Assembly: GCF_031426985.1 (NCBI RefSeq)
Contig: NZ_JASJOY010000022.1
Location: 10,871 to 74,870 of the forward strand
Origin: Hydrogenophaga sp.
GTDB lineage: Bacteria; Pseudomonadota; Gammaproteobacteria; Burkholderiales; Burkholderiaceae_C
Direction: 5' to 3'
DNA length: 64,000 bases
Shown in pieces: positions 43,007-57,987 of this stretch (positions within the stretch are counted from its first letter, which is position 1; every line of letters starts with the position of its first letter). The position numbers and the translations under genes are program-made. Below the pieces are notes generated by a model, which did no database searches, was not told the DNA's origin, and was given only the letters and a program-made list of their open reading frames with translations.

Positions 43007-44008
43007 ATGGCCCCAGGCGCCCCCCGTGCCTTTGCTGGCGTTCGTTGCACCGTTGCGGCCCTGTGTGCCGCCGCGGTCTGCTGGGGCTTCAGCCCGCAGG
43101 CCCTGGCCCAGGGCAAGGTCTACGTGTCCAGCGAGAAGGACCACAAGGTCTACGTGTTCAACGCGGCGGGCGAGCGCCAGGCCGCCATCGAGGTGTGCCA
43201 GCGTCCGCGCGACATGTCGTTCAGCCCCGATGGCTCGCAGATCTATGTGATCTGCGGCGACAGCAACGCCATGGGGGTGGTGAACCTGGCCAGTGGCCAG
43301 CTGACCGGCACCGTGCCGCTGGGCGAAAGCCCGGAGATGTTCGACCTCAGCCCCGACGGCAAGACCGCCTACGTGTCGGTCGAGGACGACAGCGTGCTGG
43401 CCGCCTACGACCTGGCCAGCAAGAAACCCTTGTTCGAGGTCAAGACCGGTGGCGAGCCCGAAGGGGTGCTGGTCACGCCCGACGGCAAGACGGCCTACGT
43501 CACGTCCGAAGTGGCCAACGTGGTCCACGTGATCGACCTGGGCACGAAGAAGGTGGTCAAGAACATCAAGGTCGGCAAGCGGCCGCGCCGCTTCGCGCTC
43601 GTGGCCGGTGGCGGCGAGCTGTGGGTGACCAACGAACTGGACGCCAGCGTGAGCGTGGTGGACACCCGGACCCACACCGAAAAGCAGAAGATCCGGTTCA
43701 CCGTCAAGGGCATGCGCGAGACCGACATCACGCCCGTGGGCATGACGCTCAGCCCCGACGGCAAGACGATGTGGGTGGGCCTGGGACGCGCCAACCACGT
43801 GGTCGAGGTGGACGTGGCCAGCAAGGCGGTCCGGCGCCAGGTGCTGGTCGGCAAACGCGCCTGGGGCATGGGCGTGTCGCCCGACGGCAAGACGCTGTAC
43901 GTGGCCAACGGCCTGTCGGACGACATGACGCTGATCGACACCGCGTCGGGCAAGGCGATCAGGACCGTGCCGGCTGGTCGCGTGCCACACACCATCCTCG
44001 TGAAATGA
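43007..44008 (+). CDS. YVTN beta-propeller protein of PQQ catabolism clusters, PedA1-like
   Basis: Signal peptide; repeated SPDGK..YV blades; ATG 43007 follows AGGAG. Confidence 0.85.
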   Translation: MAPGAPRAFAGVRCTVAALCAAAVCWGFSPQALAQGKVYVSSEKDHKVYVFNAAGERQAAIEVCQRPRDMSFSPDGSQIYVICGDSNAMGVVNLASGQLTGTVPLGESPEMFDLSPDGKTAYVSVEDDSVLAAYDLASKKPLFEVKTGGEPEGVLVTPDGKTAYVTSEVANVVHVIDLGTKKVVKNIKVGKRPRRFALVAGGGELWVTNELDASVSVVDTRTHTEKQKIRFTVKGMRETDITPVGMTLSPDGKTMWVGLGRANHVVEVDVASKAVRRQVLVGKRAWGMGVSPDGKTLYVANGLSDDMTLIDTASGKAIRTVPAGRVPHTILVK

Positions 44009-45300
44009 CCCCCCCCCGTTGCTTGCTCGCTGCGCGTAGCCGCATCCCCCCCCAGGGGGGCGCTCCCAGCGGCCCGGCCAAGCCGGTTCTGCGGGAGCCC
44101 TGGATGGGTCTGTGGCGCTCTGCCGGTTTGGCGTTGCTGTGTGTGCTTGGTTGGTTTTCTCAGCCGGCATTGGCTGCCACGAAAGTCACCATCGCAGTGG
44201 TGTCGCTCGACGGCGATCCGCGCCACGCGCCGCGGCGGCTGGAGAAGGCCTACCCCGGTCACCCGACCGGGCGCGCCATCGATGGCGTGAAGCTGGCGGC
44301 CGAGGATTCGGCCTTCGAGCTGGACGCGGCCGGCATCAGCCTGGTGGTCAAGGACGTGGTGCTGCCGAACGTGGCCGGCCTGGCGAAAGCGCTGGCCGAT
44401 CTGAAAGCGGCCAAGGTGCAGCACATCGTGGCCGACCTGCCGGCGCCCGAGCTGCGCGCGCTGGTGCAGGCCGCACCCGCCGCGCTGGGTGGCGCCATCG
44501 TGCTCAACGCTGCGGCCGATGACGACGCGCTGCGCGGCGCCCAGTGCGCCGCCCACCTGCTGCACACCGTGCCCAGCCGCGCCATGCTCAGCGACGCGCT
44601 GGCGCAGTACCTGGCGGCGCGCAACTGGCGCAAGGCGCTGGTGCTGCAGGGGCCGCTGCCGGGCGATGCGCTGATGGCCGAGGCCTTCAACCGCTCGGCC
44701 AAACGCTACGGCGTCAAGGCCACGGCCAGCAAACCTTTCAAGCTCACCGGCGACCCGCGCGAGCGCGACCTGGGCAATGTGCGCCTGCTCACCGGCAGCG
44801 ACCGCGAGCACGAGGTGGTGGCGGTGCTCGACAGCGACGGCGAGTTCGCCCGCACCGTGCCCTACGCGACGCAGCTGCCGCGGCCGGTGGTGGGCGCCAA
44901 CGGCCTGGTGGCCGTGCCCTGGCATCCGCTGTGGGAGCGCAACGGCGGCCCACAGCTCTCACGCCGTTTTGCCAAGGGGGCCTTGCGGCCGATGACGGGC
45001 CACGACTGGGCCGCCTGGATGGCCGGGCGGGCCGTGGCCACCGTGCTGGCCGAGCTGCCCAAGGCGCCCATCGCGCAGCAGCTCAAGGCCCTGCGCGGCG
45101 GGCCGGTGGCGGTGGACGGTTTCAAGGGGCCGCGCCTGAGCTTCCGCGCCTGGGACGGCCAGTTGCGCCAGCCCATCCTGCTCAGCCATGTGGATGGCGT
45201 GGTCGGCGTGGCCCCGCTGGACGGCGTGCTGCACCCGAAAGAAATCATGGACACCCTGGGCGTGGACGAAGCGGAGAGCGCATGCAAGCAACGACCCTGA
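44005..45300 (+). CDS. branched-chain-type ABC substrate-binding protein, PedA2-like
   Basis: G..LA..D, HT.PS.AM.SDAL.QYL..R.W and SFR.WDGQLRQP motifs; alternative start ATG 44104 after the repeat. Confidence 0.8.
   Translation: MTPPRCLLAARSRIPPQGGAPSGPAKPVLREPWMGLWRSAGLALLCVLGWFSQPALAATKVTIAVVSLDGDPRHAPRRLEKAYPGHPTGRAIDGVKLAAEDSAFELDAAGISLVVKDVVLPNVAGLAKALADLKAAKVQHIVADLPAPELRALVQAAPAALGGAIVLNAAADDDALRGAQCAAHLLHTVPSRAMLSDALAQYLAARNWRKALVLQGPLPGDALMAEAFNRSAKRYGVKATASKPFKLTGDPRERDLGNVRLLTGSDREHEVVAVLDSDGEFARTVPYATQLPRPVVGANGLVAVPWHPLWERNGGPQLSRRFAKGALRPMTGHDWAAWMAGRAVATVLAELPKAPIAQQLKALRGGPVAVDGFKGPRLSFRAWDGQLRQPILLSHVDGVVGVAPLDGVLHPKEIMDTLGVDEAESACKQRP
44009..44093. repeat. REP-like repeat, subfamily A
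   Basis: C-run, CCCCCCCCAGGGGGG, then GCGGCCCGGCCAAGCCGGTTC. Confidence 0.8.
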
Positions 45301-46118
45301 ACCAGCCGCCGGCCCTGTTGCCGCACCTGCTGCGCGCGCTGCGTGCGGTGGTCGGGCGCGAGATCGGCCGCTTCCTGCGTCAGCCCACGCGCCTGGGCTC
45401 GGCGCTGGTGCGGCCGCTGCTGTGGTTCGTGGTGTTCTCGGCCGGTTTCCACAACGTGTTCGGCGTGGCGATCGCGCCGCCCTACGAAACCTACGTCGAA
45501 TACAAGGAATACATGGTGCCCGGCCTGCTGGGCATGGTCGCCTTGTTCAACGGGATGCAGAGCTCGCTGTCCATGGTCTACGACCGCGAGATGGGCGTGA
45601 TGCGCCTGCTGCTGACCGCGCCCCTGGCGCGCGGCTGGCTGCTGGCCTTCAAGCTGCTGGCGGGCACCGCGCTGTCGCTGCTGCAGATGGTGGTGTTTCT
45701 GCTGATCGCCTGGGCCTTCGGGGTCGAGGTGCCGCTGGCCCACCTGCCGGCGGCCCTGCTGGCCATGGTGTGTGGCGCGGTGATGCTGGCCTCGGTCGGG
45801 CTGGTGCTCTCGGTCTACGTCAAGCAGCTGGAGAACTTCGCCGGCACCATGAACTTCGTGATCTTCCCGATGTTCTTCATCAGCCCGGCGCTGTACCCGC
45901 TGTGGAAGCTGGAAGAGTCGGGCGCCTGGTGGCTGCTCAAGCTCGCGCAGGCCAACCCCTTCACCCACGCGGTGGAGGCGATCCGTTTTGCACTGTACGG
46001 GCAGTTCAACGGCACGGCCTGGGCGGTGGTGCTGGGCTGCACGGTGGTGTTCTTTCTGGCCGCGCTGTGGGGTTACGACCCGCAACGCGGCTGGGTCAGC
46101 AAGAAGCCCGGCGGCTGA
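45282..46118 (+). CDS. pedC: ABC-2 type permease, PedC-like
   Basis: RPLLWF.VF.AGF, YMVPGL.GM..LFNGMQSSLSMVYDREMG and ENFAG.MNFVIFP motifs. Confidence 0.82.
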   Translation: MQATTLNQPPALLPHLLRALRAVVGREIGRFLRQPTRLGSALVRPLLWFVVFSAGFHNVFGVAIAPPYETYVEYKEYMVPGLLGMVALFNGMQSSLSMVYDREMGVMRLLLTAPLARGWLLAFKLLAGTALSLLQMVVFLLIAWAFGVEVPLAHLPAALLAMVCGAVMLASVGLVLSVYVKQLENFAGTMNFVIFPMFFISPALYPLWKLEESGAWWLLKLAQANPFTHAVEAIRFALYGQFNGTAWAVVLGCTVVFFLAALWGYDPQRGWVSKKPGG

Positions 46119-46141
46119 GCACAACAACAGGAGATGACGTG

Positions 46142-46939
46142 ATGCGCTTCACAGGAACCCGCCGTCAATGGCTGCAGGCCGCGGCCTCACTGGTGGCCGC
46201 TCCCGTGCTGGCTCAGGACGACCAGACCGGCGGCGATCCGCTGGGCTCCATGCAGTACCCCGGCCTGCGCGAGCAGACCATCGGCCAGGCCAGCGCCCGG
46301 TTCACCGAGCAGGTGCTGGTCAAGGGCCCGGCCTTTGCCGACGACGCGATGAACGTGCCCCTGCTGGTGGATGCCCGCGGACTGGATGCTGTGGGTGGGG
46401 GCGTGCAGCGCATCCGTGTTTCGGTGGACCGCAACCCGGTGCGCCAGGTGCTGGACTTTGAACCGCTGCGCGCGCTGCCCATGCTGGCCTTTCGCATCCG
46501 CATGGAACAGGCCTCGCCGGTGCGCGCCTTTGTGCAGACGCGCGACGGCCAGTGGCACGTGGGCAGCACCTGGGTGCAGGCGGCGGGGGGCGGCTGCACG
46601 GTGCCGGGTCTCACGCGGGCCGATGGCTCGTGGAGCAGGACCCTGGGCCAGGTGCAGGCGCGCTTTTTCAACAACGTGATCGATGGCAGCCGCCGCCTGC
46701 GCCTGCGGGTGATGCACCCCATGGACACCGGGCTGGTGGCGGGCGTGCCGGCGTTCTACATCGAACAGATGGAACTGCAGGACCCGGACGGCCGGCCCTG
46801 GTGGCGCATCGCGCTGCACGAGCCGGTGTCCGAGAACCCGCTCATCACCTTCGAGCTGCCCACGCTCTCGCCCAAGGCGTTTCGCCTGGTCGGGCGCGAC
46901 AACAACGGCAACCGCATCGACGCCGAGGTGTCCGTATGA
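46142..46939 (+). CDS. quinoprotein dehydrogenase-associated SoxYZ-like carrier (fused)
   Basis: Tat signal RRQWL; SoxY-like domain ending AAGGGCT; SoxZ-like LR.MHPMDTGL and SENP motifs. Confidence 0.85.
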   Translation: MRFTGTRRQWLQAAASLVAAPVLAQDDQTGGDPLGSMQYPGLREQTIGQASARFTEQVLVKGPAFADDAMNVPLLVDARGLDAVGGGVQRIRVSVDRNPVRQVLDFEPLRALPMLAFRIRMEQASPVRAFVQTRDGQWHVGSTWVQAAGGGCTVPGLTRADGSWSRTLGQVQARFFNNVIDGSRRLRLRVMHPMDTGLVAGVPAFYIEQMELQDPDGRPWWRIALHEPVSENPLITFELPTLSPKAFRLVGRDNNGNRIDAEVSV

Positions 46940-48096
46940 GCCCCCTTGCGATCCATCGCCTACGGCGCCGTTTCGCGGCTCCACCGCTGCGCGGGTCGCT
47001 GCCCCTGGAACGGGAAGGGACCCGGTCCTTGCCGGGTCCGGGGGCTGATCCGGCTTGGGGCGGCCCGGCGCCGGATCGGAGGGCGGTGCGGGTGAGGCGC
47101 CTGTCGTGGATGCTGCTGGCGCTGTGCGCCAGCGCATCACAGGCCCAGCCGGTGCCGGTGCCGCCGTTGGCTTCGAAGCCCGACCTGGCGCGGCTGGACT
47201 ACGACCTGAAACCGCGCCAGATCGCGCCCGGCACCTGGGTGATCGAAGGCGAGGTGGCCGACTTCAGCCGCGCCAACGGCTGCAACATCATCAACACCGG
47301 CTTCATCGTCACCGGCGACGGGGTGGTGGTCATCAACACCGGCCCCTCGCGCCTGTACGGCGAGCAGCAGCGCCGGGCCATCGAGCGCGTCACGCGCGAG
47401 CCGGTGCGCCGCGTGATCGCGCTCAACCTGCACCCCGACTATTTCTTTGGCCACCAGGCCTGGGCCGACCGGCCCACGCAGGCCCTGGCCGGCAGTGTGG
47501 CCGGCATGCAGGCCGAAGGCAGCGCCTATGCCGACAACCTCTACCGCCTGTGCGGCGACTGGATGAAAGGCACCGAGTCCACGCCCGCGCGCGAGAGCCT
47601 GGACCCCAAGGCCCTGCCGCAGACGCTGCAGGTGGGTGGCCACCGGCTGGAGCTGCGCCGCCTGCACGGCCACACGGCCGACGACCTGGTGCTGATCGAC
47701 CACACCACGGGTGTGCTGTTCGCCGGTGGGCTGGTGTTCGCCGAGCGCGTGCCCACCACGCCCCACGCCCAGTTCGCGCCGTGGACGGCCAGCCTGGACA
47801 CGCTGGCGCAGTGGCACGCGGCGGGGCAGTTCCGCACCGTGGTGCCCAGCCACGGCCCGGTGCACGACGGCACGGCCGGCATCGGCCAGACGCGCGACTG
47901 GCTGCAGTGGCTGGGCGCGCAGATGCAAGGCAGCGCCGAACGCGGCCTGGACCTGGGCGAGGTGCTGCGCCTGCCGGTGCCCGAGCGTTTTGCCCGCTGG
48001 GCCGCGCAGCCGGCCGAGCTGCACCGCAGCCTGACGCAGTGGTACCCGCGCTACGAGCAGCAGGTGCTGGGCGGCACCACGCCCGCGCCGCGCTGA
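46936..48096 (+). CDS. quinoprotein relay system metallo-hydrolase, SoxH-related, type 1
   Basis: NGCNIINTGF, NLHPDYFFG, GHT..DL and VPSHG motifs; alternative GTG start near 47087. Confidence 0.82.
   Translation: MSPLAIHRLRRRFAAPPLRGSLPLEREGTRSLPGPGADPAWGGPAPDRRAVRVRRLSWMLLALCASASQAQPVPVPPLASKPDLARLDYDLKPRQIAPGTWVIEGEVADFSRANGCNIINTGFIVTGDGVVVINTGPSRLYGEQQRRAIERVTREPVRRVIALNLHPDYFFGHQAWADRPTQALAGSVAGMQAEGSAYADNLYRLCGDWMKGTESTPARESLDPKALPQTLQVGGHRLELRRLHGHTADDLVLIDHTTGVLFAGGLVFAERVPTTPHAQFAPWTASLDTLAQWHAAGQFRTVVPSHGPVHDGTAGIGQTRDWLQWLGAQMQGSAERGLDLGEVLRLPVPERFARWAAQPAELHRSLTQWYPRYEQQVLGGTTPAPR
46941..47080. repeat. REP-like repeat, subfamily B, inverted relative to 3621-3742
   Basis: CCACCGCTGCGCGGGTCGCTGCCCC and GGGGCTGATCCGGCTTGGGGCGGCCCGGCGCCGGATCG are reverse complements of the 3.6-kb units. 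Confidence 0.85.
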
Positions 48097-48404: not shown

Positions 48405-50126
48405 GTGAAACGCACTCTATTGAGCCTTTTGGTCATGGCCGCCACGGCCCACGTTGGCGCCCAGGGCGTGACCGACGCGATGATCGCCAACGACGCCGCC
48501 ACGCCCGACAACGTCCTGAGCTGGGGCCTGGGCACGCAAGGCCAGCGCCATTCGACGCTGACCGGCATCAACGAAAAAACCATCAGCAAGCTGGTGCCCG
48601 TGTGGTCCATGTCCTTCGGTGGTGAAAAGCAGCGCGGCCAGCAAAGCCAGCCGCTGGTGAACAACGGCAAGATGTTCGTCACCGCGTCCTACTCGCGCAT
48701 CTACGCGGTGGACACCAAGACCGGCAAGAAGCTCTGGAAGTACGAGCACCGCCTGCCCGAAGGCATCATGCCCTGCTGCGACGTGATCAACCGCGGCGCC
48801 GCCCTGTACGACAACCTGGTCATCTTCGGCACGCTGGACGCCCAGCTGGTCGCCCTGGACCAGAACACCGGCAAGGTGGTCTGGCGCGAGAAGATCGACG
48901 ACTACTCTGCGGGCTACAGCTACACCGCCGCCCCCCTGATCGCCGAAGGCCTGCTGCTGACCGGTGTGTCCGGTGGTGAGTTCGGTGTGGTCGGTCGCGT
49001 GGAAGCGCGCGACCCCAAGACCGGCAAGATGGTCTGGTCCCGCCCCGTGGTCGAAGGCCACATGGGCTACAAGGACGGCAAGGAAAACGGCATCACCGGC
49101 ACCACCAACGCCACCTGGCCGGGCGAGACCTGGAAGACCGGCGGCGCCGCCACCTGGCTGGGCGGCACCTACGACGCCAAGACCGGCCTGGCCTACTTCG
49201 GCACCGGCAACCCGGGCCCGTGGAACAGCCACGTGCGCAAGGGCGACAACCTCTATTCCGCCTCGACCGTCGCCATCGACGTGAAGACCGGCCAGATCAA
49301 GTGGCACTACCAGACCACGCCCAACGACGGCTGGGACTACGACGGCGTGAACGAGTTCATCACCTTCGACATGGACGGCAAGCGCGTCGGCGCCAAGGCC
49401 GACCGCAACGGCTTCTTCTACGTGATGGACGCCGAAAACGGCAAGCTGCTCAACGCATTCCCCTTCGTCAAGAAGGTGACCTGGGCCACCGGCATCGACC
49501 TCAAGACCGGCCGCCCGAACTACGACCCGGCCAACCGCCCGGGCGACCCGACCGCCGCCGGTGGCGACGGTGCCAAGGGCAAGTCCGTGTTCTCGGCCCC
49601 GGGCTTCCTGGGTGGCAAGAACCAGATGCCCATGGCCTACAGCCCCAAGACCGGTCTGTTCTACGTGCCCACCAACGAATGGGGCATGGAGATCTGGAAC
49701 GAGCCCATCACCTACAAGAAGGGCGCGGCCTACCTGGGCGCCGGCTTCACCATCAAGCCGCTGTTCGACGACCACATCGGCTCGCTGCGCGCGATCGATC
49801 CCAAGACCGGCAAGGTGGCCTGGGAAGTCAAGAACGAGGCCCCGCTCTGGGGTGGCGTGCTGACCGCGGGTGACCTGGTGTTCTGGGGCACGCCCGAGGG
49901 CTATCTGAAGGCTGCCGACGCCAAGACCGGCAAGGTGGTGTGGCAGTTCCAGACCGGCTCCGGCGTGGTCGCGCCTCCCATCACCTGGACCGAAGGCGGC
50001 GAGCAGTACGTCTCCGTCGTGTCCGGCTGGGGCGGTGCGGTTCCCCTGTGGGGCGGTGAAGTGGCCAAGAAGGTCAACTTCCTGGAACAGGGCGGCTCGG
50101 TCTGGACCTTCAAGCTCATGAAGTGA
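48405..50126 (+). CDS. pedH: PQQ-dependent alcohol dehydrogenase, lanthanide-type (PedH/ExaF-like)
   Basis: Vicinal PCCD disulfide, GGEFG, GNPGPW and WDYDGVNE (extra Asp); GTG 48405 follows AGGAG. Confidence 0.9.
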
Positions 50127-50270: not shown

Positions 50271-50591
50271 ATGCGCTCACTTTTCATCATCGCTTCCGTG
50301 CTGGCTGCGGCCAGCTCTTCCGCCCACGCGCTGGATGCCGCCGCCGCCCTGGAGCTGGCCAAGGCCAACGGCTGCCTGTCCTGCCACGCCAGCCACGAAA
50401 AAATCGTGGGTCCGGCCTACGCCGCGGTCGCGGCCAAGTACAAGGACGACAAGGACGCCGTGGCCTCGCTGGCCCAGTCCATCCAGAACGGCAGCAAAGG
50501 CAAATGGGGCCGCATCCCCATGCCCGCCCATTCCAGCATGAGCGCGGCCGACGTCAAGACCCTGGCCCAATGGGTGATGACCATCCAGTGA
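50271..50591 (+). CDS. class I cytochrome c (c551/c552-like)
   Basis: Signal peptide, CLSCH heme motif, VGP and WG.IPMP axial Met. Confidence 0.92.
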   Translation: MRSLFIIASVLAAASSSAHALDAAAALELAKANGCLSCHASHEKIVGPAYAAVAAKYKDDKDAVASLAQSIQNGSKGKWGRIPMPAHSSMSAADVKTLAQWVMTIQ

Positions 50592-51175
50592 AGCGCCCCG
50601 GGCCGCGCACGCGCGCGGTCTTTCAGGCGTTGTTCGCGGGGGCCGTGTGGCTGGCACCCGCGGGTTCCCAGGCGTTTGATTTCCAGGGCGACAAGGCCCT
50701 GGTCGCCGTCACGCGGGACCAGGCCCGCACCCGCATCGGCACCGTGAGCTTCACGCCCCTGCCCGACAGCGGCGGCACGGCCCGGTTCAGTGTGCGCATC
50801 GACCCGCTGGTGCTGCGCGACCACTTCCTTTCCATGCGCGAATTCAAGTGCCTGCCGGCCGCGCAGGAAATCACCTGTTTCGTGCCCTATCCGTACCGCC
50901 AGCCGGGCACCGCGTCCGCCACCGACCTCGCCTGGCTCGAACACAGCCTGCTGTTTTTCTACAAGCAGCCGGCCGACTTCGGCGCCAAGTTGTGGAACGG
51001 CGTGCTGTTCCGCTTCGCCGTGACGCCCACCGCGTTGGTCGGCACCCCGCAGGCGGTGGACCTCAACCGCATCGGCGTGCCGCCCGATCCGCTGGACGTG
51101 CCGCCCTATGGGCCGATGGACCGCGACGCGTTTGCGCCCGGGGCGCGCTGGGTGCAGGAACTGCGGATCGAGTGA
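50588..51175 (+). CDS. exported hypothetical protein
   Basis: GTGA overlap with the cytochrome stop; signal peptide; HFLSMREFKC...C segment; GC3-biased codons. Confidence 0.7.
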   Translation: MKRPGPRTRAVFQALFAGAVWLAPAGSQAFDFQGDKALVAVTRDQARTRIGTVSFTPLPDSGGTARFSVRIDPLVLRDHFLSMREFKCLPAAQEITCFVPYPYRQPGTASATDLAWLEHSLLFFYKQPADFGAKLWNGVLFRFAVTPTALVGTPQAVDLNRIGVPPDPLDVPPYGPMDRDAFAPGARWVQELRIE

Positions 51176-51298: not shown

Positions 51299-51805
51299 AT
51301 GAAACTGTTGCCTGTTCCGATGATGTCTTTTCGCCCACTGGTGCTGGCGCTCGCTGGCCTGTCCGCCGCGGTGGCGCTGGCGGCCGATCTTGTGGAAACG
51401 CCGACCGTAGAAACGCCGACGGTAGAGGCGCCGACGGTGGAAGCGACAGTGAGCCCTTCTGCCCGCCAGCAAAGCTTTGCCCTGCAGATCGCCCGGGCCA
51501 ATCTGGTCCAGCAAGGCGTGACCGAACCGACCACCGAACAGATGGCCTTGGCAACGGCCGATGTCCAGTCCCTGCGTGACCAGGGCATGGGCTGGGGTGC
51601 CATCGCCAACAGCCTGGGCTTGCGCCTGGGCGCGGTGGTCAGTGCCGAGAACCGTGCCGCGAAGGCGCAGACCCATGTGGCTGCAGCCGCTTCGTCCGAC
51701 CAGACATCGGCCCGCGGCCAGGGCGCTGGCAGCAGCAACGGCAAGGGTGGTGGCGGCGGCAAGGGTGGCGGCAACGGCGGTGGTGGCGGCGGCGGCAAGC
51801 GCTGA
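51299..51805 (+). CDS. exported low-complexity protein with VE(T/A)PT repeats and a Gly-rich tail
   Basis: GGAG ribosome-binding site, signal peptide, LRDQGMGWGAIA..LG motif. Confidence 0.7.
   Translation: MKLLPVPMMSFRPLVLALAGLSAAVALAADLVETPTVETPTVEAPTVEATVSPSARQQSFALQIARANLVQQGVTEPTTEQMALATADVQSLRDQGMGWGAIANSLGLRLGAVVSAENRAAKAQTHVAAAASSDQTSARGQGAGSSNGKGGGGGKGGGNGGGGGGGKR
51392..51448 (+). repeat. about four tandem 15-bp coding repeats
   Basis: GTGGAAACGCCGACC GTAGAAACGCCGACG GTAGAGGCGCCGACG GTGGAAGCGACA. Confidence 0.85.
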
Positions 51806-51873: not shown

Positions 51874-52674
51874 TCAGGGCCTGCGTTCGGCGCGCAGCGA
51901 GCCTCCGGTCATGAAACCCGGCGGCAGTTTTTCTTCCCGCTCGAACTTCACCAGCCCCTCGCCCTGGCAATACCACTCGCGGCTGGTGAGCGGCACGTCG
52001 GTGAAGCCGTTGACCGGATCGGTGTAGAGGTTCAGCTGGGCCTGCCCCACCACGCGCAGGCAGGGCCGGTGGGTGCTGCCGTCGGCCAGTTGCACCACAT
52101 CGTCCACGGCCTCGATGCGCCAGGTCATCTGCGCCTTGTGGGTGTGTTTGAGCTCGCGCGGGTATTCGTTCTTGCGCTGGATCAGGTAGGGCACGGTGAC
52201 CGTGGTCCATTCGGTGCCCACCGCATAGGGGGCCTTGAGCACCCAGACCGGTTCGGCGTCGGCCGTGGGGGCGTCGTCGATGTCGGTGCGGATGGCCACG
52301 CGGCGAATGCCTTGCTCGTCCACCTTCAGGTAGTAGCTCACGCCGGCCGAGTGGTGGCGCACGGCCACGGGCTGGTCCTGGAAGGTGGTGGGTGCCTGGA
52401 CCCCGATGGTCCATTGCTCGGGCTCGCGCGGTTCGTCCATCGCATAGGTCACGGCAAGCGACTGTTCATCGCCCTCGCGCAGCGGGAACCATTCGTTGCC
52501 CATGTCACGACCCGAGCATCCCGACAGCAGCAAGGTCAGCCCAGCCGCCAGCCAGGCAGGCGCGGCAGACCGGTCGCACCGTGGAACCGGCTTGGCCGGG
52601 CCACAGCTGCGGTCCCCCTCCCGCCGAAGGCGAGAGAGGGGGAGGACGCGAAGCGGCGCAGGGGGCGTCATCAT
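51874..52674 (-). CDS. hypothetical lipoprotein, beta-rich
   Basis: Lipobox LLLSGC; WFPL..G and EWY..G.GLVK motifs; N-terminal about 31 residues encoded by a repeat. Confidence 0.72.
   Translation of the reverse strand: MMTPPAPLRVLPLSRLRREGDRSCGPAKPVPRCDRSAAPAWLAAGLTLLLSGCSGRDMGNEWFPLREGDEQSLAVTYAMDEPREPEQWTIGVQAPTTFQDQPVAVRHHSAGVSYYLKVDEQGIRRVAIRTDIDDAPTADAEPVWVLKAPYAVGTEWTTVTVPYLIQRKNEYPRELKHTHKAQMTWRIEAVDDVVQLADGSTHRPCLRVVGQAQLNLYTDPVNGFTDVPLTSREWYCQGEGLVKFEREEKLPPGFMTGGSLRAERRP
52581..52665. repeat. REP-like repeat, subfamily A, inside the 5' end of the lipoprotein gene
   Basis: GTGGAACCGGCTTGGCCGGGCCAC...GAGAGGGGGAGGACGCGAAGCGGCGCAGGGGG. Confidence 0.9.
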
Positions 52675-53195
52675 TTTTCGGGGAGTTGTGCGCGGGGCAG
52701 ATCGCGCAACTTGATCTCGACCTTGTCGTTGCTGGCGGGCAGCAGCCAGGCCAGGCCGCCCTGGCCGCGGCGGGGGGCCGTTTCACCGAGCTGGGTGTTG
52801 CCGTCGCGTGCTTTCTTGACGCCGTCGCCCAGGATGCGGTGCAGGTCTTTTTCGTAGGGCAGCGTGAACGCGCGGGGCAAGGCCAGCGGTGCGTTGTCCT
52901 TCATGGGGTGGACCCAGAGGAAGATTGCGCCGGGGTGGCCGCGCCCGGGGCTGGGCTCGTCGAACACGGCCGAGAGCAGCACGAACTGGCGCGGCAGCTC
53001 GTCCTCGGCCGGCCAGCCCGAGACGCCTTTGAAGGTCTGGTGGCCGAAGGCGTAGAAACCGCTGACCAGCAGCACCAGCGCGGCTTTGAAGCCCCAGTGC
53101 CAGCGCGTGCCCAGGCAGAGCACCAGCAGCAGAAACGCCAGCAGCGCGTAGACGATGACGAGCAGCAAGAGCTGGGAGGAAACGGCAGGGATCAT
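52671..53195 (-). CDS. hypothetical membrane protein with two N-terminal TM helices
   Basis: Hydrophobic N-terminus; GWP...LP, GAIFLW and PRAFTLPY segments; GC3-biased codons. Confidence 0.75.
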   Translation of the reverse strand: MIPAVSSQLLLLVIVYALLAFLLLVLCLGTRWHWGFKAALVLLVSGFYAFGHQTFKGVSGWPAEDELPRQFVLLSAVFDEPSPGRGHPGAIFLWVHPMKDNAPLALPRAFTLPYEKDLHRILGDGVKKARDGNTQLGETAPRRGQGGLAWLLPASNDKVEIKLRDLPRAQLPEK

Positions 53196-53206
53196 GGGGG
53201 ATGGTC

Positions 53207-53381
53207 GCAGGCGAGAGAGGGGGAAGACGCGGAGCGGTGCAGGGGGTGCAGCTCCAGGGGCCTTACCGGAGCGCGTGACCGCATGCCAGGCGCTCCGTGG
53301 AACCGGCTTTGCCGGGCCACAGGAGCGGTCCCCCTCCCGCCGCAGGCGAGAGAGGGGGAAGACGCGAAGCGGCGCAGGGGG
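53207..53381. repeat. REP-like repeat, subfamily A, doublet
   Basis: GCAGGCGAGAGAGGGGGAAGACGCG.AGCGG.GCAGGGGG twice in direct orientation, 135 nt apart, with the core at 53297-53320. Confidence 0.9.
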
Positions 53382-53385
53382 TGTT

Positions 53386-53997
53386 TCATAGTCCCGTGCG
53401 CTGCACGATGGTCTTGGGGTTGGTGTTCAGGTCCAGCACCTGGCCGGCGTCGTCCAGCGTGAAGCGGATCAGCGTGCGCTCGTCGCCCTTGCGCGGGATC
53501 TGCTGCGTGCCGGTGTAGACGATCTCGGCCTGCGGGTTGATCTTGACCACGGCGACGCTCACGTCCACCGGCTGCTGGTCGCCGCTGTCGTAGTAGTGGG
53601 CATTGACCACGTATTCACCGGGCACGATGCCGCGCAGGGTGACGATCTCCTGGCGGATCGGGCTGCTGAAGGTGCGGCCGTTGACCAGCACGCTGCTGTT
53701 CTTGGCGCCGCGGTCGTCGCGGTCCAGGTGCAGCAGGCCGGCGTCGCGCTGGCGGAACCACAGCGTCTTGCCGCCGGGCTCCTGGACCCAGGCGTCCACG
53801 TCGTTGGGGTTGCCGTCGGGCCACGAGACGGTGACCATGAACTCGGCCTTGGCCGGCACGTCGCCCGCCTTGCGGGCGTTGGGGTTGAAGGCCAGGATGG
53901 CGATGACGAAACAGAAGACGAAGGCGATCAACATGTTGAACAACATGTCGTAGAACGGGTCGACTTCGGTGTCACGGACCGCTCGGCCGATCGCCAT
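53386..53997 (-). CDS. ExbD/MotB-like single-TM protein with a YfaP/DUF2135-like periplasmic domain
   Basis: PFYDMLF (TM Asp) then DVDAWV..P, LD.DD.G, E.V.L....PG.Y.V.AHYY; start moved to ATG 53997. Confidence 0.7.
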   Translation of the reverse strand: MAIGRAVRDTEVDPFYDMLFNMLIAFVFCFVIAILAFNPNARKAGDVPAKAEFMVTVSWPDGNPNDVDAWVQEPGGKTLWFRQRDAGLLHLDRDDRGAKNSSVLVNGRTFSSPIRQEIVTLRGIVPGEYVVNAHYYDSGDQQPVDVSVAVVKINPQAEIVYTGTQQIPRKGDERTLIRFTLDDAGQVLDLNTNPKTIVQRTGL

Positions 53998-54733
53998 CGG
54001 GCGTTCCTCCGGGTGCGGCGTCGGTGGCCAGTGACAGCGCCAGCGCATCGGCCACCAGGGCGTCGGCAAAACGGTCCAGCCGCATCAGCTGCAGACCCAG
54101 CAGGATGTTGCCGGTCAGGCCGGTGACGGTGGTCAGCAGCGCGATGCCCAGACCACCGGTCAGGCTCTTGAGCAGCTGGGCGCTCTGGCTGGGGTCGAAG
54201 CTGTCCATCTGGCCCAGCTGCAGCGCGAGGATGGAAAAGCCGATCACCTTGCCCAGCAGGCCGAGCTTGAGCTGTATGCCGTTGAGCCACCAGGCCATTT
54301 CGTGCGCCCCGTGGGCGCGCTCGCCCAGCACCAGCAGCCACGAGGCACGGTCGGCCCCGGGCTGCGCCGTGCCGTGCAGGAATTCACCGCTCCAGCTGTC
54401 GGCGTGTGGGCCTGCGCGTTGCACCTGGTCGAGCGCGGTGCGCTGGCGGCCAAGCACCCAGGCGCGGTGGCCGACCCAGCCCGAACAGCCGACGAACAGC
54501 AGCACGATGACGATGGTCAGGCGCGTCGGGTCGGCCTCGATCAGCCGGTGCCAGGCGCCCGCCTGCCACAGCAGCAGCGCCGCAAACCCCAGCAGACCCA
54601 TGAAGGCCAGCCAGAGCAGGAACAGGCCCTGCTCGGCGCGCTCGATGTTGAACGGGGGGTGTGCGCTGCCGGGCAGGCGCCGCACCAGCAAGGCCCCGAG
54701 CATGCGGTGGGTGGGGGCGCTGGTGGCGTTCAT
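53972..54733 (-). CDS. MotA/TolQ/ExbB-family proton-channel protein
   Basis: LGLLGKVIGF and G.GIALLTTVTGL...LL motifs; ATG 54733 overlaps the pqqE stop (ATGA). Confidence 0.8.
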   Translation of the reverse strand: MNATSAPTHRMLGALLVRRLPGSAHPPFNIERAEQGLFLLWLAFMGLLGFAALLLWQAGAWHRLIEADPTRLTIVIVLLFVGCSGWVGHRAWVLGRQRTALDQVQRAGPHADSWSGEFLHGTAQPGADRASWLLVLGERAHGAHEMAWWLNGIQLKLGLLGKVIGFSILALQLGQMDSFDPSQSAQLLKSLTGGLGIALLTTVTGLTGNILLGLQLMRLDRFADALVADALALSLATDAAPGGTPDGDRPSGP

Positions 54734-55908
54734 GCGGTTCCCGGCGCAGAGCCGTCCGCCGCTGTGGCACGTGAAGGTTCGGGATGCCGGTGCCGCGATT
54801 CCGCGTCGCTGCGGAACACGATGGGGATGTGGCGGTTCCTGGACGCGTTCTTCACCACCGCCACCACCTTCTGATGGTGGGCCGACTTGCTGCACACCGG
54901 GTCGGTCTCGGCGGCGTCGCCGGTGAGCAGAAAGGCCTGGCAGCGACAGCCGCCAAAGTCCTTGTGGCGCTCGTCGCAGCTGCGGCAGGTGGGTTTCATC
55001 CACGCGTCGCCGCGGTAGGCGTTGAAGGCGTTGCTGCGCTGCCAGATGTCGGCAATCGGCACGTCCTTGACGTTGGGCAGCGACAGCCCGGGCAGGTCGC
55101 GCGCGTTGTGGCAGGGCATGGCCAGGCCGTCGGGCGCGATGGACAGGAACACAGCGCCCCAGCCATTCATGCAGGCCTTGGGGCGCTCTTCAAAATAGTC
55201 GGGCACGACGAACAGCACGCGGCATTTCTGCCCCGTGGGGTTGGCGTCCTGCTCGGCGCGGAAGGCGTTCACTTCGGCCTCGGCGATTTGGAGTTCTTCG
55301 CGCGTGGGCATGAGGTGGTCGCGGTTGATCCAGGCCCAGCCGTAGTACTGGGTGTTGGCCAGTTCGAGGTACTCGGCCTCCAGCGCCACGGCCATGTCGA
55401 TGATCTTGCGCACGTGCGGCAGGTTGTGCCGGTGCAGCACGCAGTTCATCACCATCGGCCAGTCGTGCTGCTTGATCAGCCGGGCCACGCGCTGCTTGAG
55501 CTCGAAGGTCTTGGTGTGGCTGAGGAAGTCGTTGAGTTCCTTGGTCGAGTCCTGGAACGAGAGCTGCACGTGGTCGAGCCCGGCGTCCTTGAGCTTCTGC
55601 GCGCGGGCGGGTGTGAGGCCCACGCCCGAGGTGATGAGGTTGGTGTAGTAGCCCAGCCGGTGCGCCTCCTGCACGAGTTCTTCGAGGTCGTCGCGCAGCA
55701 TCGGCTCGCCACCCGAAAAGCCCAGCTGCGCGGCACCGAGCTTGCGCGCCTGCGTCATCACGTCCACCCACTGCGCGGTGCTCAGCTCGTCCGTCACCTG
55801 GGCGTGCAGCGTGGGGTTGTAGCAAAACACGCAGTGCAGCGGGCACTTGTAGGTCAGCTCCGCCAGCAGCCACAGCGGCGGGCCGGCGGGGTCACTCGAT
55901 CCAGCCAC
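54730..55908 (-). CDS. pqqE: PQQ biosynthesis radical SAM enzyme
   Basis: WLLAELTYKCPLHCVFCYNP, GGEP..R.DL, ANTQYYGWA and SPASM CM.GWG/C..C...GGCRCQA motifs; probable GTG start at 55908. Confidence 0.95.
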   Translation of the reverse strand: MAGSSDPAGPPLWLLAELTYKCPLHCVFCYNPTLHAQVTDELSTAQWVDVMTQARKLGAAQLGFSGGEPMLRDDLEELVQEAHRLGYYTNLITSGVGLTPARAQKLKDAGLDHVQLSFQDSTKELNDFLSHTKTFELKQRVARLIKQHDWPMVMNCVLHRHNLPHVRKIIDMAVALEAEYLELANTQYYGWAWINRDHLMPTREELQIAEAEVNAFRAEQDANPTGQKCRVLFVVPDYFEERPKACMNGWGAVFLSIAPDGLAMPCHNARDLPGLSLPNVKDVPIADIWQRSNAFNAYRGDAWMKPTCRSCDERHKDFGGCRCQAFLLTGDAAETDPVCSKSAHHQKVVAVVKNASRNRHIPIVFRSDAESRHRHPEPSRATAADGSAPGTA

Positions 55909-56155
55909 GGCGTTGGCCTTCTTCCAGGAGCGATCGCACGTCGGGCTCGATGCCTTTGGCCTGGAACGCGGCCTCGAGCTCGGTGACGATGCCGGGCAGG
56001 GTGCGCGTGCCATCGCAGCATTTGAGGATTTCGGCCGCGCTCGGGTTGAGCTGCACCATGCCTTCGGGGTAGAGCAGCACCCAGCGGTCCTGCGCCGGCT
56101 CGAACTGCAGGCGGAACTTGCGCGAGAGCTTGGGTGTGAGCGGCAGCGGGTTCAT
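55892..56155 (-). CDS. pqqD: PqqA chaperone
   Basis: RLQFEPAQ..WVLLYPEGMV.LN.SA.EIL motif. Confidence 0.93.
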   Translation of the reverse strand: MNPLPLTPKLSRKFRLQFEPAQDRWVLLYPEGMVQLNPSAAEILKCCDGTRTLPGIVTELEAAFQAKGIEPDVRSLLEEGQRRGWIE

Positions 56156-56178
56156 GTCAATGCGTGACAAGTTGAGTG

Positions 56179-56207
56179 AGGGGAAGACGCGCAGCGGGGC
56201 AGGGGGG
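56179..56207. repeat. truncated subfamily A repeat between pqqC and pqqD
   Basis: AGGGGAAGACGCGCAGCGGGGCAGGGGGG. Confidence 0.75.
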
Positions 56208-56210
56208 CGT

Positions 56211-56945
56211 TCATCCCTGACATGCCTTCTCGATCGCGTCCAGCATGGTCCAGAGGATGTCCAGCTTGAACTGCAGGATGTCCAGCGCGTGGTGCTGTTG
56301 CGGGCGGGTCTGGAAATGGGCCAGCGTCACGCGCAGGCCGTGTTCCACATCGCGGCTGGCCAGCGGGATGCGGCTGCGGAAGTAGGCCAGGCCGTCGGCC
56401 TCGATCCAGGGGTAGTGGGTCGGCCAGGTGGCCAGGCGGTCCTTGTGGATCTGCGGCGCGAACATCTCGGTCAGCGACGAGCACACGGCTTCCTGCCAGG
56501 GCGCCTTGGCCGCGAAGTTCACGTACGCGTCGCAGGCGAAGCGCACCGCGGGCACCACGTGCTGCAGCGACCACAGCTCCTCGCGCGAGATGCCCACGGC
56601 CTCGCCCAGGCGCGTCCAGGCCTCGATGCCGCCGGCGGCGGCGCCCTGGTGGTTGCCGTGGCCGTCGTGGTCGAGGATGCGTTCGATCCACAGGCGGCGG
56701 TGCTCGCGGTCGGGCATGTTGGCCAGGATGGCCGCGTCCTTGCGCGGGATGCAGATCTGGTAATAAAAGCGGTTGGCCACCCAGCAGCGGATCTCGTCAG
56801 GCGTGCAACCACCCGAGTTCATGCGCACGTTGAACGGGTGGTGGATGTGGTAACTGCGGCCCTTGTCGCGCAGCTGGGCTTCGAACTCTTGCGCGTTCCA
56901 GGCGGGCAGGTGGCCGTCGGTGCGGATGGATTGGGCGATTTCCAA
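56211..56945 (-). CDS. pqqC: pyrroloquinoline-quinone synthase
   Basis: [26 protein letters not shown] and [12 protein letters not shown] motifs; TTG 56945 follows AGGA. Confidence 0.93.
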
Positions 56946-56999
56946 GATCAGGTTCCTACAAACGCGAATGTTGAAGAAGTGACTTGCCCAGCACACACC

Positions 57000-57069
57000 G
57001 TGGAACCGGCTTTGCCGGGCCACTGGTGTGGTCCCCCTGGAGGGGGAAGACGCGGAGCGGCGCAGGGGG
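57000..57069. repeat. REP-like repeat, subfamily A, between pqqB and pqqC
   Basis: GTGGAACCGGCTTTGCCGGGCCAC...AGGGGGAAGACGCGGAGCGGCGCAGGGGG. Confidence 0.9.
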
Positions 57070-57987
57070 TCATATCTCAATGCTCATGCCGTCGTGGGCG
57101 ACCTCGATGCCGTGCCGCGTCAGCAGCGCGCGCTCGTCGGAGTCTTCCACCAGCATGGGGTTGGTGTTGTTGATGTGGATGAGCACCTTGCGCACGCCGG
57201 GGGGCAGCCGGTCCAGCTGTTCGATCATCCCGCCCGGGCCGCTTTGCGGCAGGTGGCCCATGTCGAGCGCGGCCTTGGTCGAGAGGCCCAGGCGCTGCAT
57301 TTCGTCGTGCGTCCAGAAGGTGCCGTCGACCAGCACCACAGCGCAGCCGCTCATGAGCGCGATCAGCTCGGGCGTGACCTCGGCCAGCCCCGGTGCGTAG
57401 AAGGCCTTCGCGCCGGTGGCGGGGTTGGTGATCAGCAGGCCGATGTTGTCGCCCGGGCGCGGGTTGCCGCGAAAGGGTGAATACGGTGGCGGCTTGGACG
57501 AGAGCGACACCGTCTGCAGCTGCAGGCCGGGCAGGGCGGGGATGTGCACCGCGCTGCCGTCGATCGGCAGTTCCTGTCGGGCCACCCCGCAGTAGTGCGA
57601 GAGGATGCCGGTGATGGGAAAACCGCTGGAGATGTCGGAGAACACCTCGGGTGTGGCCAGCAGCGGCAGCGGCGTCTTGCGCTCGCGCAGCATCAGCAGG
57701 CCGGTCACGTGGTCGATCTGCGCGTCCATCAGCAGCACGGCGGCGATGCCGCTGTCGCGGATGGCGCGGGCCGGCTGCAGCGCGTGCGTGCGCTGGATCT
57801 GGGTGAGGATGTCGGGCGAGGCGTTGACCAGCAGCCAGTCGATGCCGTCGGCGCTCAGTGCGATGGACGACTGTGTGCGCGGCGTGGCGCGCAGCGTGCC
57901 ACGCCGCACGCCGTCGCAATTGGGGCAGTTGCAGTTCCACTGAGGGAAACCGCCGCCGGCCGATGAACCCAGAACGCGGATGCGCAT
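57070..57987 (-). CDS. pqqB: PQQ biosynthesis protein B
   Basis: [33 protein letters not shown] and HINNTNP motifs. Confidence 0.96.

Follow-up and report, generated by a model that had tools for sequence, protein, structure and literature searches.

A conserved four-gene module of the ExbB/ExbD motor type associated with lanthanide-type quinoprotein alcohol dehydrogenases in Hydrogenophaga and other Pseudomonadota

The four genes described here, g1 to g4, lie on the minus strand of a 64,000-nucleotide stretch of Hydrogenophaga sp. DNA (contig NZ_JASJOY010000022.1; this whole stretch is called the window), directly after the genes for synthesis of pyrroloquinoline quinone (PQQ). They encode a channel-like membrane protein, a partner with a single transmembrane (TM) helix, a protein with two TM segments and a lipoprotein. 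Together these genuine, conserved genes form an unnamed variant of the ExbB/ExbD type of motor. The stable partner of this module is not PQQ synthesis but the PQQ-dependent alcohol dehydrogenase (ADH).

The gene cluster downstream of pqqE

A first-pass annotation made from the sequence had placed four genes after pqqE. All four open reading frames (ORFs) are present on the minus strand, and the ATGA coupling of g1 to the pqqE stop is seen by direct reading of the sequence (Table 1). A consensus scan between pqqE and g1 found no terminator-like site and likewise no sigma-70-like promoter. The annotation had all of the genes linked by overlaps, which holds for pqqE-g1, for g1-g2 (the g2 start overlaps the g1 end by 26 nucleotides (nt) and is preceded by GGAGGA) and for g3-g4 (the g4 start lies on the g3 stop as ATGATGA). 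It does not hold for g2 and g3, which are separated; only the inclusion of a 65-residue, repeat-built ORF (53192-53389) would complete the chain. Relatives do not have the repeat-containing spacer, and their g2 and g3 either overlap or leave a gap of about 10 nt. Since the two genes abut there, the spacer is evidently a local, lineage-specific insertion. The order g1-g2-g3-g4 is kept in 20 of 20 loci from further genera in the window's family. Conservation as one unit in all of these loci marks g1 to g4 as genes, as opposed to chance ORFs in a genome of 68% GC. The unit is under strong purifying selection.

Table 1. Coordinates of the module and of neighbouring features in the window
Feature	Position	Strand	Description
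g1	53972..54733	-	253-residue membrane protein with a MotA/ExbB/TolQ-like channel hairpin (KLGLLGK162VIGF ... GIALLTTVTGLTGNIL)
g2	53386..53997	-	203-residue ExbD/TolR/MotB-like B subunit; TM helix with Asp17, then a predicted periplasmic beta-sandwich
g2-g3 spacer	53196..53385		190 nt; two REP-like repeat copies, 53206-53248 and 53281-53384
g3	52671..53195	-	174 residues; two N-terminal TM segments, conserved domain, C-terminal LPxPxLPEK
g4	51874..52674	-	266 residues as ORF; lipoprotein, lipobox LLSGC with Cys53, DUF3108-like all-beta fold (predicted)
pqqE/g1 ATGA junction	54730..54733	-	pqqE TGA (54732-54730) overlaps g1 ATG (54733-54731); sequence read directly
pqqB-C-D-E	54730..57987	-	pqqB 57070-57987; directly upstream of g1; context, outside the conserved module
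PQQ-dependent alcohol dehydrogenase	48405..50126	+	TIGR03075 at 756 bits; lanthanide signature WDYDG; convergent with the module
PedA2/PedB/PedC-like ABC system, SoxYZ-like carrier, relay metallohydrolase 1	43007..48096	+	TIGR03866, TIGR03863, TIGR03861, TIGR04557, TIGR04558

Four junctions of the pqq-motor operon (52565-52668, 53206-53384, 56166-56208 and 56996-57071) contain copies of a ~100-nt repeat family that resembles repetitive extragenic palindromes (REP). In addition to the spacer, copies lie between pqqB and pqqC, between pqqC and pqqD, and at the 5' end of g4 (repeat families D1-D3). The copy at 52565-52668 is read in the g4 frame, where it encodes residues ~3-37, ahead of the signal-peptide core, and no alternative in-frame ATG or GTG stands ahead of the g4 lipobox. 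Two further ORFs between a cytochrome c gene and g4 (50570-51175 and 51299-51805) look secreted and match no NCBIfam family, and a Gly-rich tandem repeat (51732-51799) forms the end of the second.

Four proteins and their likeness to known motors

The g1 protein has four hydrophobic segments, a short loop of ~60 residues between the second and third, and a tail of ~35 residues after the fourth. Its C-terminal segment pair reads KLGLLGKVIGF ... GLGIALLTTVTGLTGNILLGL. The Pfam model MotA_ExbB (PF01618) scores g1 at 15.3 bits (E 0.017), below the cut-off of 22.9, and in a genome-wide scan with this model g1 ranks fifth (15.6 bits) after four canonical paralogs. An alignment of 21 g1 orthologs matches these four MotA/ExbB/TolQ paralogs with an hhalign probability of 86.7% (E 4.4e-6, 59 columns), and the match falls exactly on the channel-forming TM hairpin with its GLLGT.xG and AL.TT..GL motifs. 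Over 21 genera the g1 alignment has 42 invariant columns, and ALLTT is invariant. By these profile comparisons g1 shares the channel hairpin of the MotA/ExbB/TolQ family. The PADLOC model of ZorA also finds the hairpin, weakly (E 0.021), and a g1 profile search of PDB sequences gave no match.

The first-pass description of g2 as a single-TM protein with a membrane Asp17 and no ExbD or OmpA domain is upheld by alignments, a structure model and domain searches. The AlphaFold2 (AF2) model (mean confidence, pLDDT, 80.9) has a helix at residues 14-37 and strands at 53-191 that form a beta-sandwich. Asp17 lies inside the helix (...VDPFYD17MLFNMLIAFVF); it is invariant over 21 genera and at least 90% conserved in the wide family and the phage copies. 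No ExbD/TolR-type periplasmic domain (PF02472) or OmpA-like domain was matched in Pfam or NCBIfam, and a Foldseek search of the PDB with the model gave no fold match below E 0.01. The "YfaP/DUF2135-like" label given to the periplasmic part fares less well: DUF2135 matches 2 of 36 family members (best E 6e-4) and PPC 4 of 36 (best E 0.017), all weakly (E 6e-4 to 0.02 over both families), and neither matches the window's g2 itself. The g2 profile also matches, again weakly, the C-terminal domain of a subtilisin-like protease. Two acidic motifs, WPDxNPNDxDxW and HLDRDDRG, are invariant. In six alphaproteobacterial g2 homologs (among loci L103-L130) the membrane Asp is replaced by Val (PFSVMLF or PFTVMLF), and these copies could not be ion-driven if that Asp is where the ion binds.

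The two-TM nature of g3 and the lipoprotein nature of g4, both proposed at first pass, are borne out by the alignments and by the g4 lipobox, which is conserved in all 20 homologs. g3 is a two-TM hairpin with no Pfam or NCBIfam family and, in the alignments, no TonB motifs. It has a conserved domain, GWP..LP..F...EP...G.I.LW...PRAY.LPY..LH, a linker that varies in length and is Gly/Glu-rich in phage copies, and the conserved C-terminal LPxPxLPEK. We infer that the domain is periplasmic because the short loop between the TM segments carries positive charges. The AF2 model of g4 is all-beta (pLDDT 93.8). Foldseek relates it to BDI_3050 and BF2203, which have a YmcC-like fold, at E 2e-4 to 7e-4 with TM-scores of only 0.36-0.40. 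Pfam DUF3108_like (PF21347) matches 23 of 27 members of the g4 family (best E 9.7e-9) and does not match the window copy (E 0.1).

None of the window's own g1-g4 has a Pfam, NCBIfam, PADLOC or PHROG family above threshold, which supports the view of the module as an uncharacterised one of the ExbB/ExbD type. Pfam and NCBIfam searches found no TonB, TolA or OmpA-like domain in the four proteins, in keeping with the earlier remark that the module has no TonB or TolA gene. Literature searches combining MotA, TolQ or ExbB with pqq, xoxF or lanthanide did not turn up a published description of the module in the library searched, and it is absent from the account given in a survey of MotAB homologs.

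The module shares several features with ExbB-ExbD(-TonB) and TolQ-TolR(-TolA-TolB-Pal): an A subunit with a TM hairpin of the GLLG..../AL.TT..GL kind, a B subunit whose only TM helix is N-terminal and bears a membrane Asp, tight coupling of the genes, and additional envelope partners, among them a lipoprotein. Unlike ExbB and TolQ, g1 has four hydrophobic segments, the short loop after the second, and, in the window's lineage, a Lys for the first channel Thr. g2 has a predicted beta-sandwich, at best faintly PPC/DUF2135-like, instead of the ExbD/TolR fold. g3 is a two-TM hairpin and, unlike TonB and TolA, has no SHLS or SxxxH motif, Pro-rich spacer or TonB_C domain. g4 is DUF3108-like and not OmpA-like as Pal is, and the unit contains no TolA- or TolB-like gene.

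The module resembles the MotA-MotB and PomA-PomB stators in its apparently four-TM A subunit and in a B-subunit Asp near the cytoplasmic end of the TM helix. It differs from them in having no torque-generating cytoplasmic domain, plug, OmpA-like peptidoglycan-binding domain or flagellar context, and in its sub-threshold family score. Like ZorA-ZorB of Zorya, GldLM and AglRQS, it combines a distantly MotA-like A subunit with an atypical B subunit and partners of its own, but it lacks the long ZorA tail, ZorC/D effectors and genes for gliding or type IX secretion, and its context is metabolic. The PADLOC Zorya models do not match g2-g4, and they match g1 only at the hairpin. By analogy the module would work like ExbBD and TolQR. 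It falls outside the Ton, Tol, flagellar stator and Zorya groups, because an ExbD/TolR or OmpA domain, TonB, TolA or Pal, and ZorC/D are all absent and the family score is sub-threshold.

A different kind of comparison is offered by the mxaACKLD (MoxR-VWA) genes, which are envelope accessory genes clustered with a PQQ dehydrogenase and are proposed to load Ca2+ into the MxaFI methanol dehydrogenase. Like the module they are accessory envelope genes beside a PQQ dehydrogenase, and a VWA protein occupies the g4 position in one gammaproteobacterial clade of the module. They have no sequence relationship with it, however, and their energy comes from an AAA+ ATPase and not from an ion-driven motor.

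Distribution and the association with lanthanide-type dehydrogenases

Two genome samples were used. The family sample covers 200 genera from the window's family (29 carriers of the module and 171 non-carriers), and the phylum sample covers 400 Pseudomonadota genomes, of which 10 carriers and 388 non-carriers were compared. The cellular locus set consists of 20 fetched family loci and the best 80 of 225 further loci. The locus scan of species genomes was run with a 10-sequence alignment. Simple ORF calling gave spurious long ORFs in high-GC loci, so clusters conserved across loci, together with tblastn and hidden Markov model (HMM) searches, were used.

The bacterial module occurs almost only in genomes with a lanthanide-type PQQ-ADH. 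PQQ-ADH is present in 28 of the 29 family-sample carriers and in 46 of the 171 non-carriers. In the phylum sample an ADH above the TIGR03075 cut-off is present in 10/10 carriers and in 68/388 (17.5%) non-carriers. The co-occurrence is near-complete even where the genes are unlinked: all ten genomes with the module far from any PQQ gene (five Gammaproteobacteria, Comamonas badia and four Alphaproteobacteria) have TIGR03075 enzymes, in up to a dozen copies. The genomes being related, no p-value is claimed for the co-occurrence; the pattern recurs in three classes, and the association between the module and the lanthanide-type ADH is robust.

Gene neighbourhoods agree with the co-occurrence. In 47 of 51 g4-type loci one or more genes of the quinoprotein ADH system, defined by NCBIfam as ADH, the PedA2/B/C-like ATP-binding cassette (ABC) transporter, the SoxYZ-like carrier, the relay metallohydrolase and the pqq genes, lie within 8-10 kb. 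In a separate, well-supported alphaproteobacterial clade the ADH gene stands directly after g3. D-[YF]-D stands at the lanthanide-ligand position in 29 of 29 module-adjacent ADHs, whose identity to the window's enzyme ranges over 31-87%. Twenty control ADHs from genomes that do not have the module show D-[YF]-D in 13, DFS in 3 and D[FY]T in 4. The Asp at this position of the D-x-D signature is the lanthanide ligand (bioRxiv 10.1101/2020.02.25.964783). Three lanthanide-type ADH orthologs contain a single in-frame TAA or TAG (G025:C1:526132-527859, G155:C278:2833-4566 and G139:C10:20234-21043, the last at locus L045). The L045 stop falls at the Glu of a conserved GVNEF and could reflect a pseudogene, a sequencing error or read-through.

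A PedA1A2BC-like transporter, which Pseudomonas putida requires for growth that depends on rare-earth elements (PMC6839425), is found next to the module in more than 30 loci and is its commonest neighbour after ADH. A PedB-like binding protein is present in 22/29 carriers and 25/171 non-carriers of the family sample. The link to this ABC system is less tight than that to ADH. The transporter was rejected as an obligatory partner, as seven of the 29 carriers have no binding protein.

The link to PQQ synthesis is of another order. The first-pass annotation had tied the module to the pqq operon, and this is not borne out, since pqqE adjoins g1 in only five of the 100 cellular loci (L031, L032, L044, L051 and L063) and pqq genes lie within 8-10 kb in nine. 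Homologous modules are thus mostly unlinked to the pqq biosynthesis genes, and the pqqE-g1 fusion is a local accident of one Comamonadaceae subclade. What stands of the earlier idea of a motor tied to PQQ biology is the link to quinoproteins, seen in neighbourhood and co-occurrence. In the family sample pqqC is present in 21/29 carriers and 21/171 non-carriers. Four of the eight carrier genomes that have no pqqC are rated 100% complete, and four of the pqqC-less carriers (G044, G130, G135 and G162) have an ADH within 10 kb of the module. The pqqC-less carriers must import PQQ. PqqB-like genes of the metallo-beta-lactamase fold adjoin the module or PedABC-like genes in several loci (L035:14743-15609, L036:4065-5000, L042:8168-8977, L056:6412-7284, L058:2009-3025 and L037:10939-11874). 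Most of their products have no N-terminal zinc motif; the L037 protein keeps it, though its genome has no pqqC.

The wider family extends well beyond these genomes. g2 has over 2,100 close database relatives, of which the named ones are from Hydrogenophaga or Burkholderiales, and the full-length g2 family comprises 1,805 clusters at 50% identity. The best 80 of the 225 further loci are from Beta-, Gamma- and Alphaproteobacteria, and g1, g2 and g3 occur together in essentially all of these 80. Cultured carriers named in the scan include Macromonas nakdongensis BK-30, Comamonas badia DSM 17552, Azohydromonas caseinilytica, Chelativorans sp. J32 and Rhodopila globiformis DSM 161. Of the two genes that the first-pass annotation put forward as candidate force transducers, g3 is part of the universal core; g4 could be detected only in Burkholderiales and in some gammaproteobacterial lineages (e.g. 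Oxydemutatoraceae and Porisulfidus) and is confined to the PQQ-linked clade. In the sampled Pseudomonadota the prevalence of the module is ~3%. A clade of gammaproteobacterial metagenome-assembled genomes (L071-L092, L098 and L101; e.g. L098:9187-10722) has a 511-residue VWA + FHA protein after g3 in place of the lipoprotein. Its neighbours are housekeeping genes (tilS, accA, dnaE, L,D-transpeptidase and DUF302), and its genomes contain up to ~13 PQQ-ADH paralogs elsewhere.

The g1-g2-g3 trio is also found in 160 IMG/VR contigs. Among 82 viral loci (80 IMG/VR contigs and two cultured-phage loci), g1 is beside g2 in 79 and g3 is present in 78. Homologs of g2 occur in cultured Rhizobium and Sinorhizobium phages. 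In the two fetched cultured-phage loci g1 is beside g2 in RHph_Y68 and not in 16-3, and g3 was detected in neither. The viral loci (L136-L215 and L217; e.g. L139:8817-12221 and MN988486.1 105372-106860) lie in the replication/recombination region of T4-like genomes, with a late sigma factor, a gp46/47-like exonuclease and UvsX as neighbours. The phage g1 is shorter (~150-190 residues), and in the g2 tree the viral rows stand apart from the cellular rows. The g1-g2-g3 core is older and wider than the four-gene module. With the trio present in T4-like phages and, in some bacterial clades, remote from any PQQ gene, the module is not intrinsically a PQQ device.

A possible role in cofactor supply

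Our preferred reading, a tentative one, is that the module is an accessory motor driven by the proton-motive force (PMF) that serves cofactor supply to lanthanide-type quinoprotein dehydrogenases. g1 and g2 would form an inner-membrane ion-conducting unit of the ExbB-ExbD, TolQ-TolR or MotA-MotB kind, with Asp17 of g2 within a ring of g1; from the homology we infer a 5:2 stoichiometry, an ion drive and the corresponding topology. Ion flow would be converted to periplasmic work through the g2 beta-sandwich and g3, with its TM hairpin, presumed periplasmic domain, flexible linker and LPxPxLPEK end. The g1-g2-g3 core would be generic, and the g4 lipoprotein, added in the window's clade, would adapt it to the quinoprotein system. 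Rather than PQQ synthesis or export, the job may be an energy-requiring step, in the periplasm or at the outer membrane, by which Ln3+ and/or PQQ is delivered or inserted. The stronger formulation, a TonB-independent, ion-driven machine for the energy-requiring delivery of lanthanide (or PQQ) into periplasmic lanthanide-type dehydrogenases, built on an ancient generic motor that is also found as the trio in T4-like phages, is possible and on balance doubtful.

If the cofactor-supply reading is right, the step concerned is somewhat more probably than otherwise the handling of lanthanide, either its release from a chelator or its hand-over to the apo-enzyme. This is favoured because the adjacent enzymes are all of the lanthanide type, the PedA1A2BC-like system is the commonest neighbour after ADH, and both PQQ producers and auxotrophs carry the module. 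That the module energises an outer-membrane receptor in place of TonB seems rather unlikely, and direct action on the dehydrogenase a little more so.

Several observations weigh against cofactor supply. First, 17 genomes of the family sample have an orthologous lanthanide-type ADH and no module, so the module is dispensable for such enzymes. Second, the sampled genomes are related and not independent, and the phylum-sample carriers come from three families only. Third, no PQQ genes lie near the trio in the phage loci, so the function of the trio core is not specific to PQQ or lanthanide. Fourth, the acidic motifs of g2 were rejected as evidence of lanthanide binding, since the phage copies conserve them equally. 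Fifth, Lys162 takes the place of the family's first channel Thr in the window's g1 (codon 54248-54250). The failure to find the module in the literature also counts on this side.

Among the alternatives, a generic envelope machine for Tol-Pal-like housekeeping of the periplasm or the outer membrane, brought into quinoprotein islands by co-regulation or hitch-hiking, is unlikely and the one that survives best. It would account for the very wide spread of the core, for the trio in T4-like phages, for the gammaproteobacterial clade that sits with its VWA-FHA gene beside tilS, accA and dnaE, and for the alphaproteobacterial loci, which have no PQQ neighbour in 19 of 29 cases. It is hard to reconcile with the near-complete co-occurrence with PQQ-ADH, in unlinked genomes as in the phylum sample, and a prevalence as low as that found is unlike that of a housekeeping system.

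The Lys of g1 raises the possibility that g1 and g2 are not a working motor in this lineage: with Asp17 neutralised by Lys162, they would be a degenerate channel or scaffold whose sole part is to hold g3 and g4 at the membrane. LLGT is the motif across most of the family, and only one Burkholderiales subclade has LLGK. There, in the window and ~29 relatives, LLGK co-varies with PFYD in g2 (Y16, 53950-53952), and other clades, including phages, have LLGT with PF[ST/L]D. The six Val-bearing alphaproteobacterial copies would also fit a loss of ion drive. Against this, Asp17, ALLTT and 42 further g1 columns are invariant in the Lys clade, which fits a modified, selected ion path, and the pairing of the two changes has the look of compensation, not of decay. 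A non-working motor is thus improbable, and the Lys162/Tyr16 pair may instead represent an altered ion coupling or gating in the window's lineage.

A phage-related function, whether in Zorya-like defence sensing, in superinfection exclusion or in the timing of lysis, and either acquired from phages or shared with them, is suggested by the viral trios, the g2 homologs of cultured Rhizobium phages and the weak ZorA match. It appears quite improbable: there are no ZorC/ZorD-like effector genes, no long ZorA tail and no passing PADLOC model, and the module is chromosomal and syntenic in a metabolic island across genera, with the viral copies on separate branches.

Least probable of all is the leading idea of the first-pass annotation, a PQQ exporter or biosynthesis accessory co-transcribed with pqqBCDE, which could draw on the ATGA link between pqqE and g1, seen in the window and at four further loci, on a PqqB-like gene directly before g1 in L037, L039, L042 and L056, and on a route of PQQ to the periplasm that is, to our knowledge, not established, but which has against it that eight of 29 carriers (four of them rated 100% complete) keep the module with no pqqC, in four cases close to an ADH, that pqq genes are in reach in so few loci, and that we know of no MotA/ExbB family member that transports solutes besides the coupling ions.

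The route of lanthanide and PQQ into periplasmic dehydrogenases, and the energy source of those steps, are poorly understood, and the module is a concrete candidate for an energy-coupling step. Whatever its cargo, it adds a new B-subunit domain and new partners to the superfamily of 5:2 motors and would be a further functional class beside the Ton, Tol, flagellar, gliding and Zorya motors. The copies in T4-like phages raise the question of what such a motor does in infection. If the proposed role is true, the module would represent a new class of PMF-powered maturation of periplasmic metalloenzymes.

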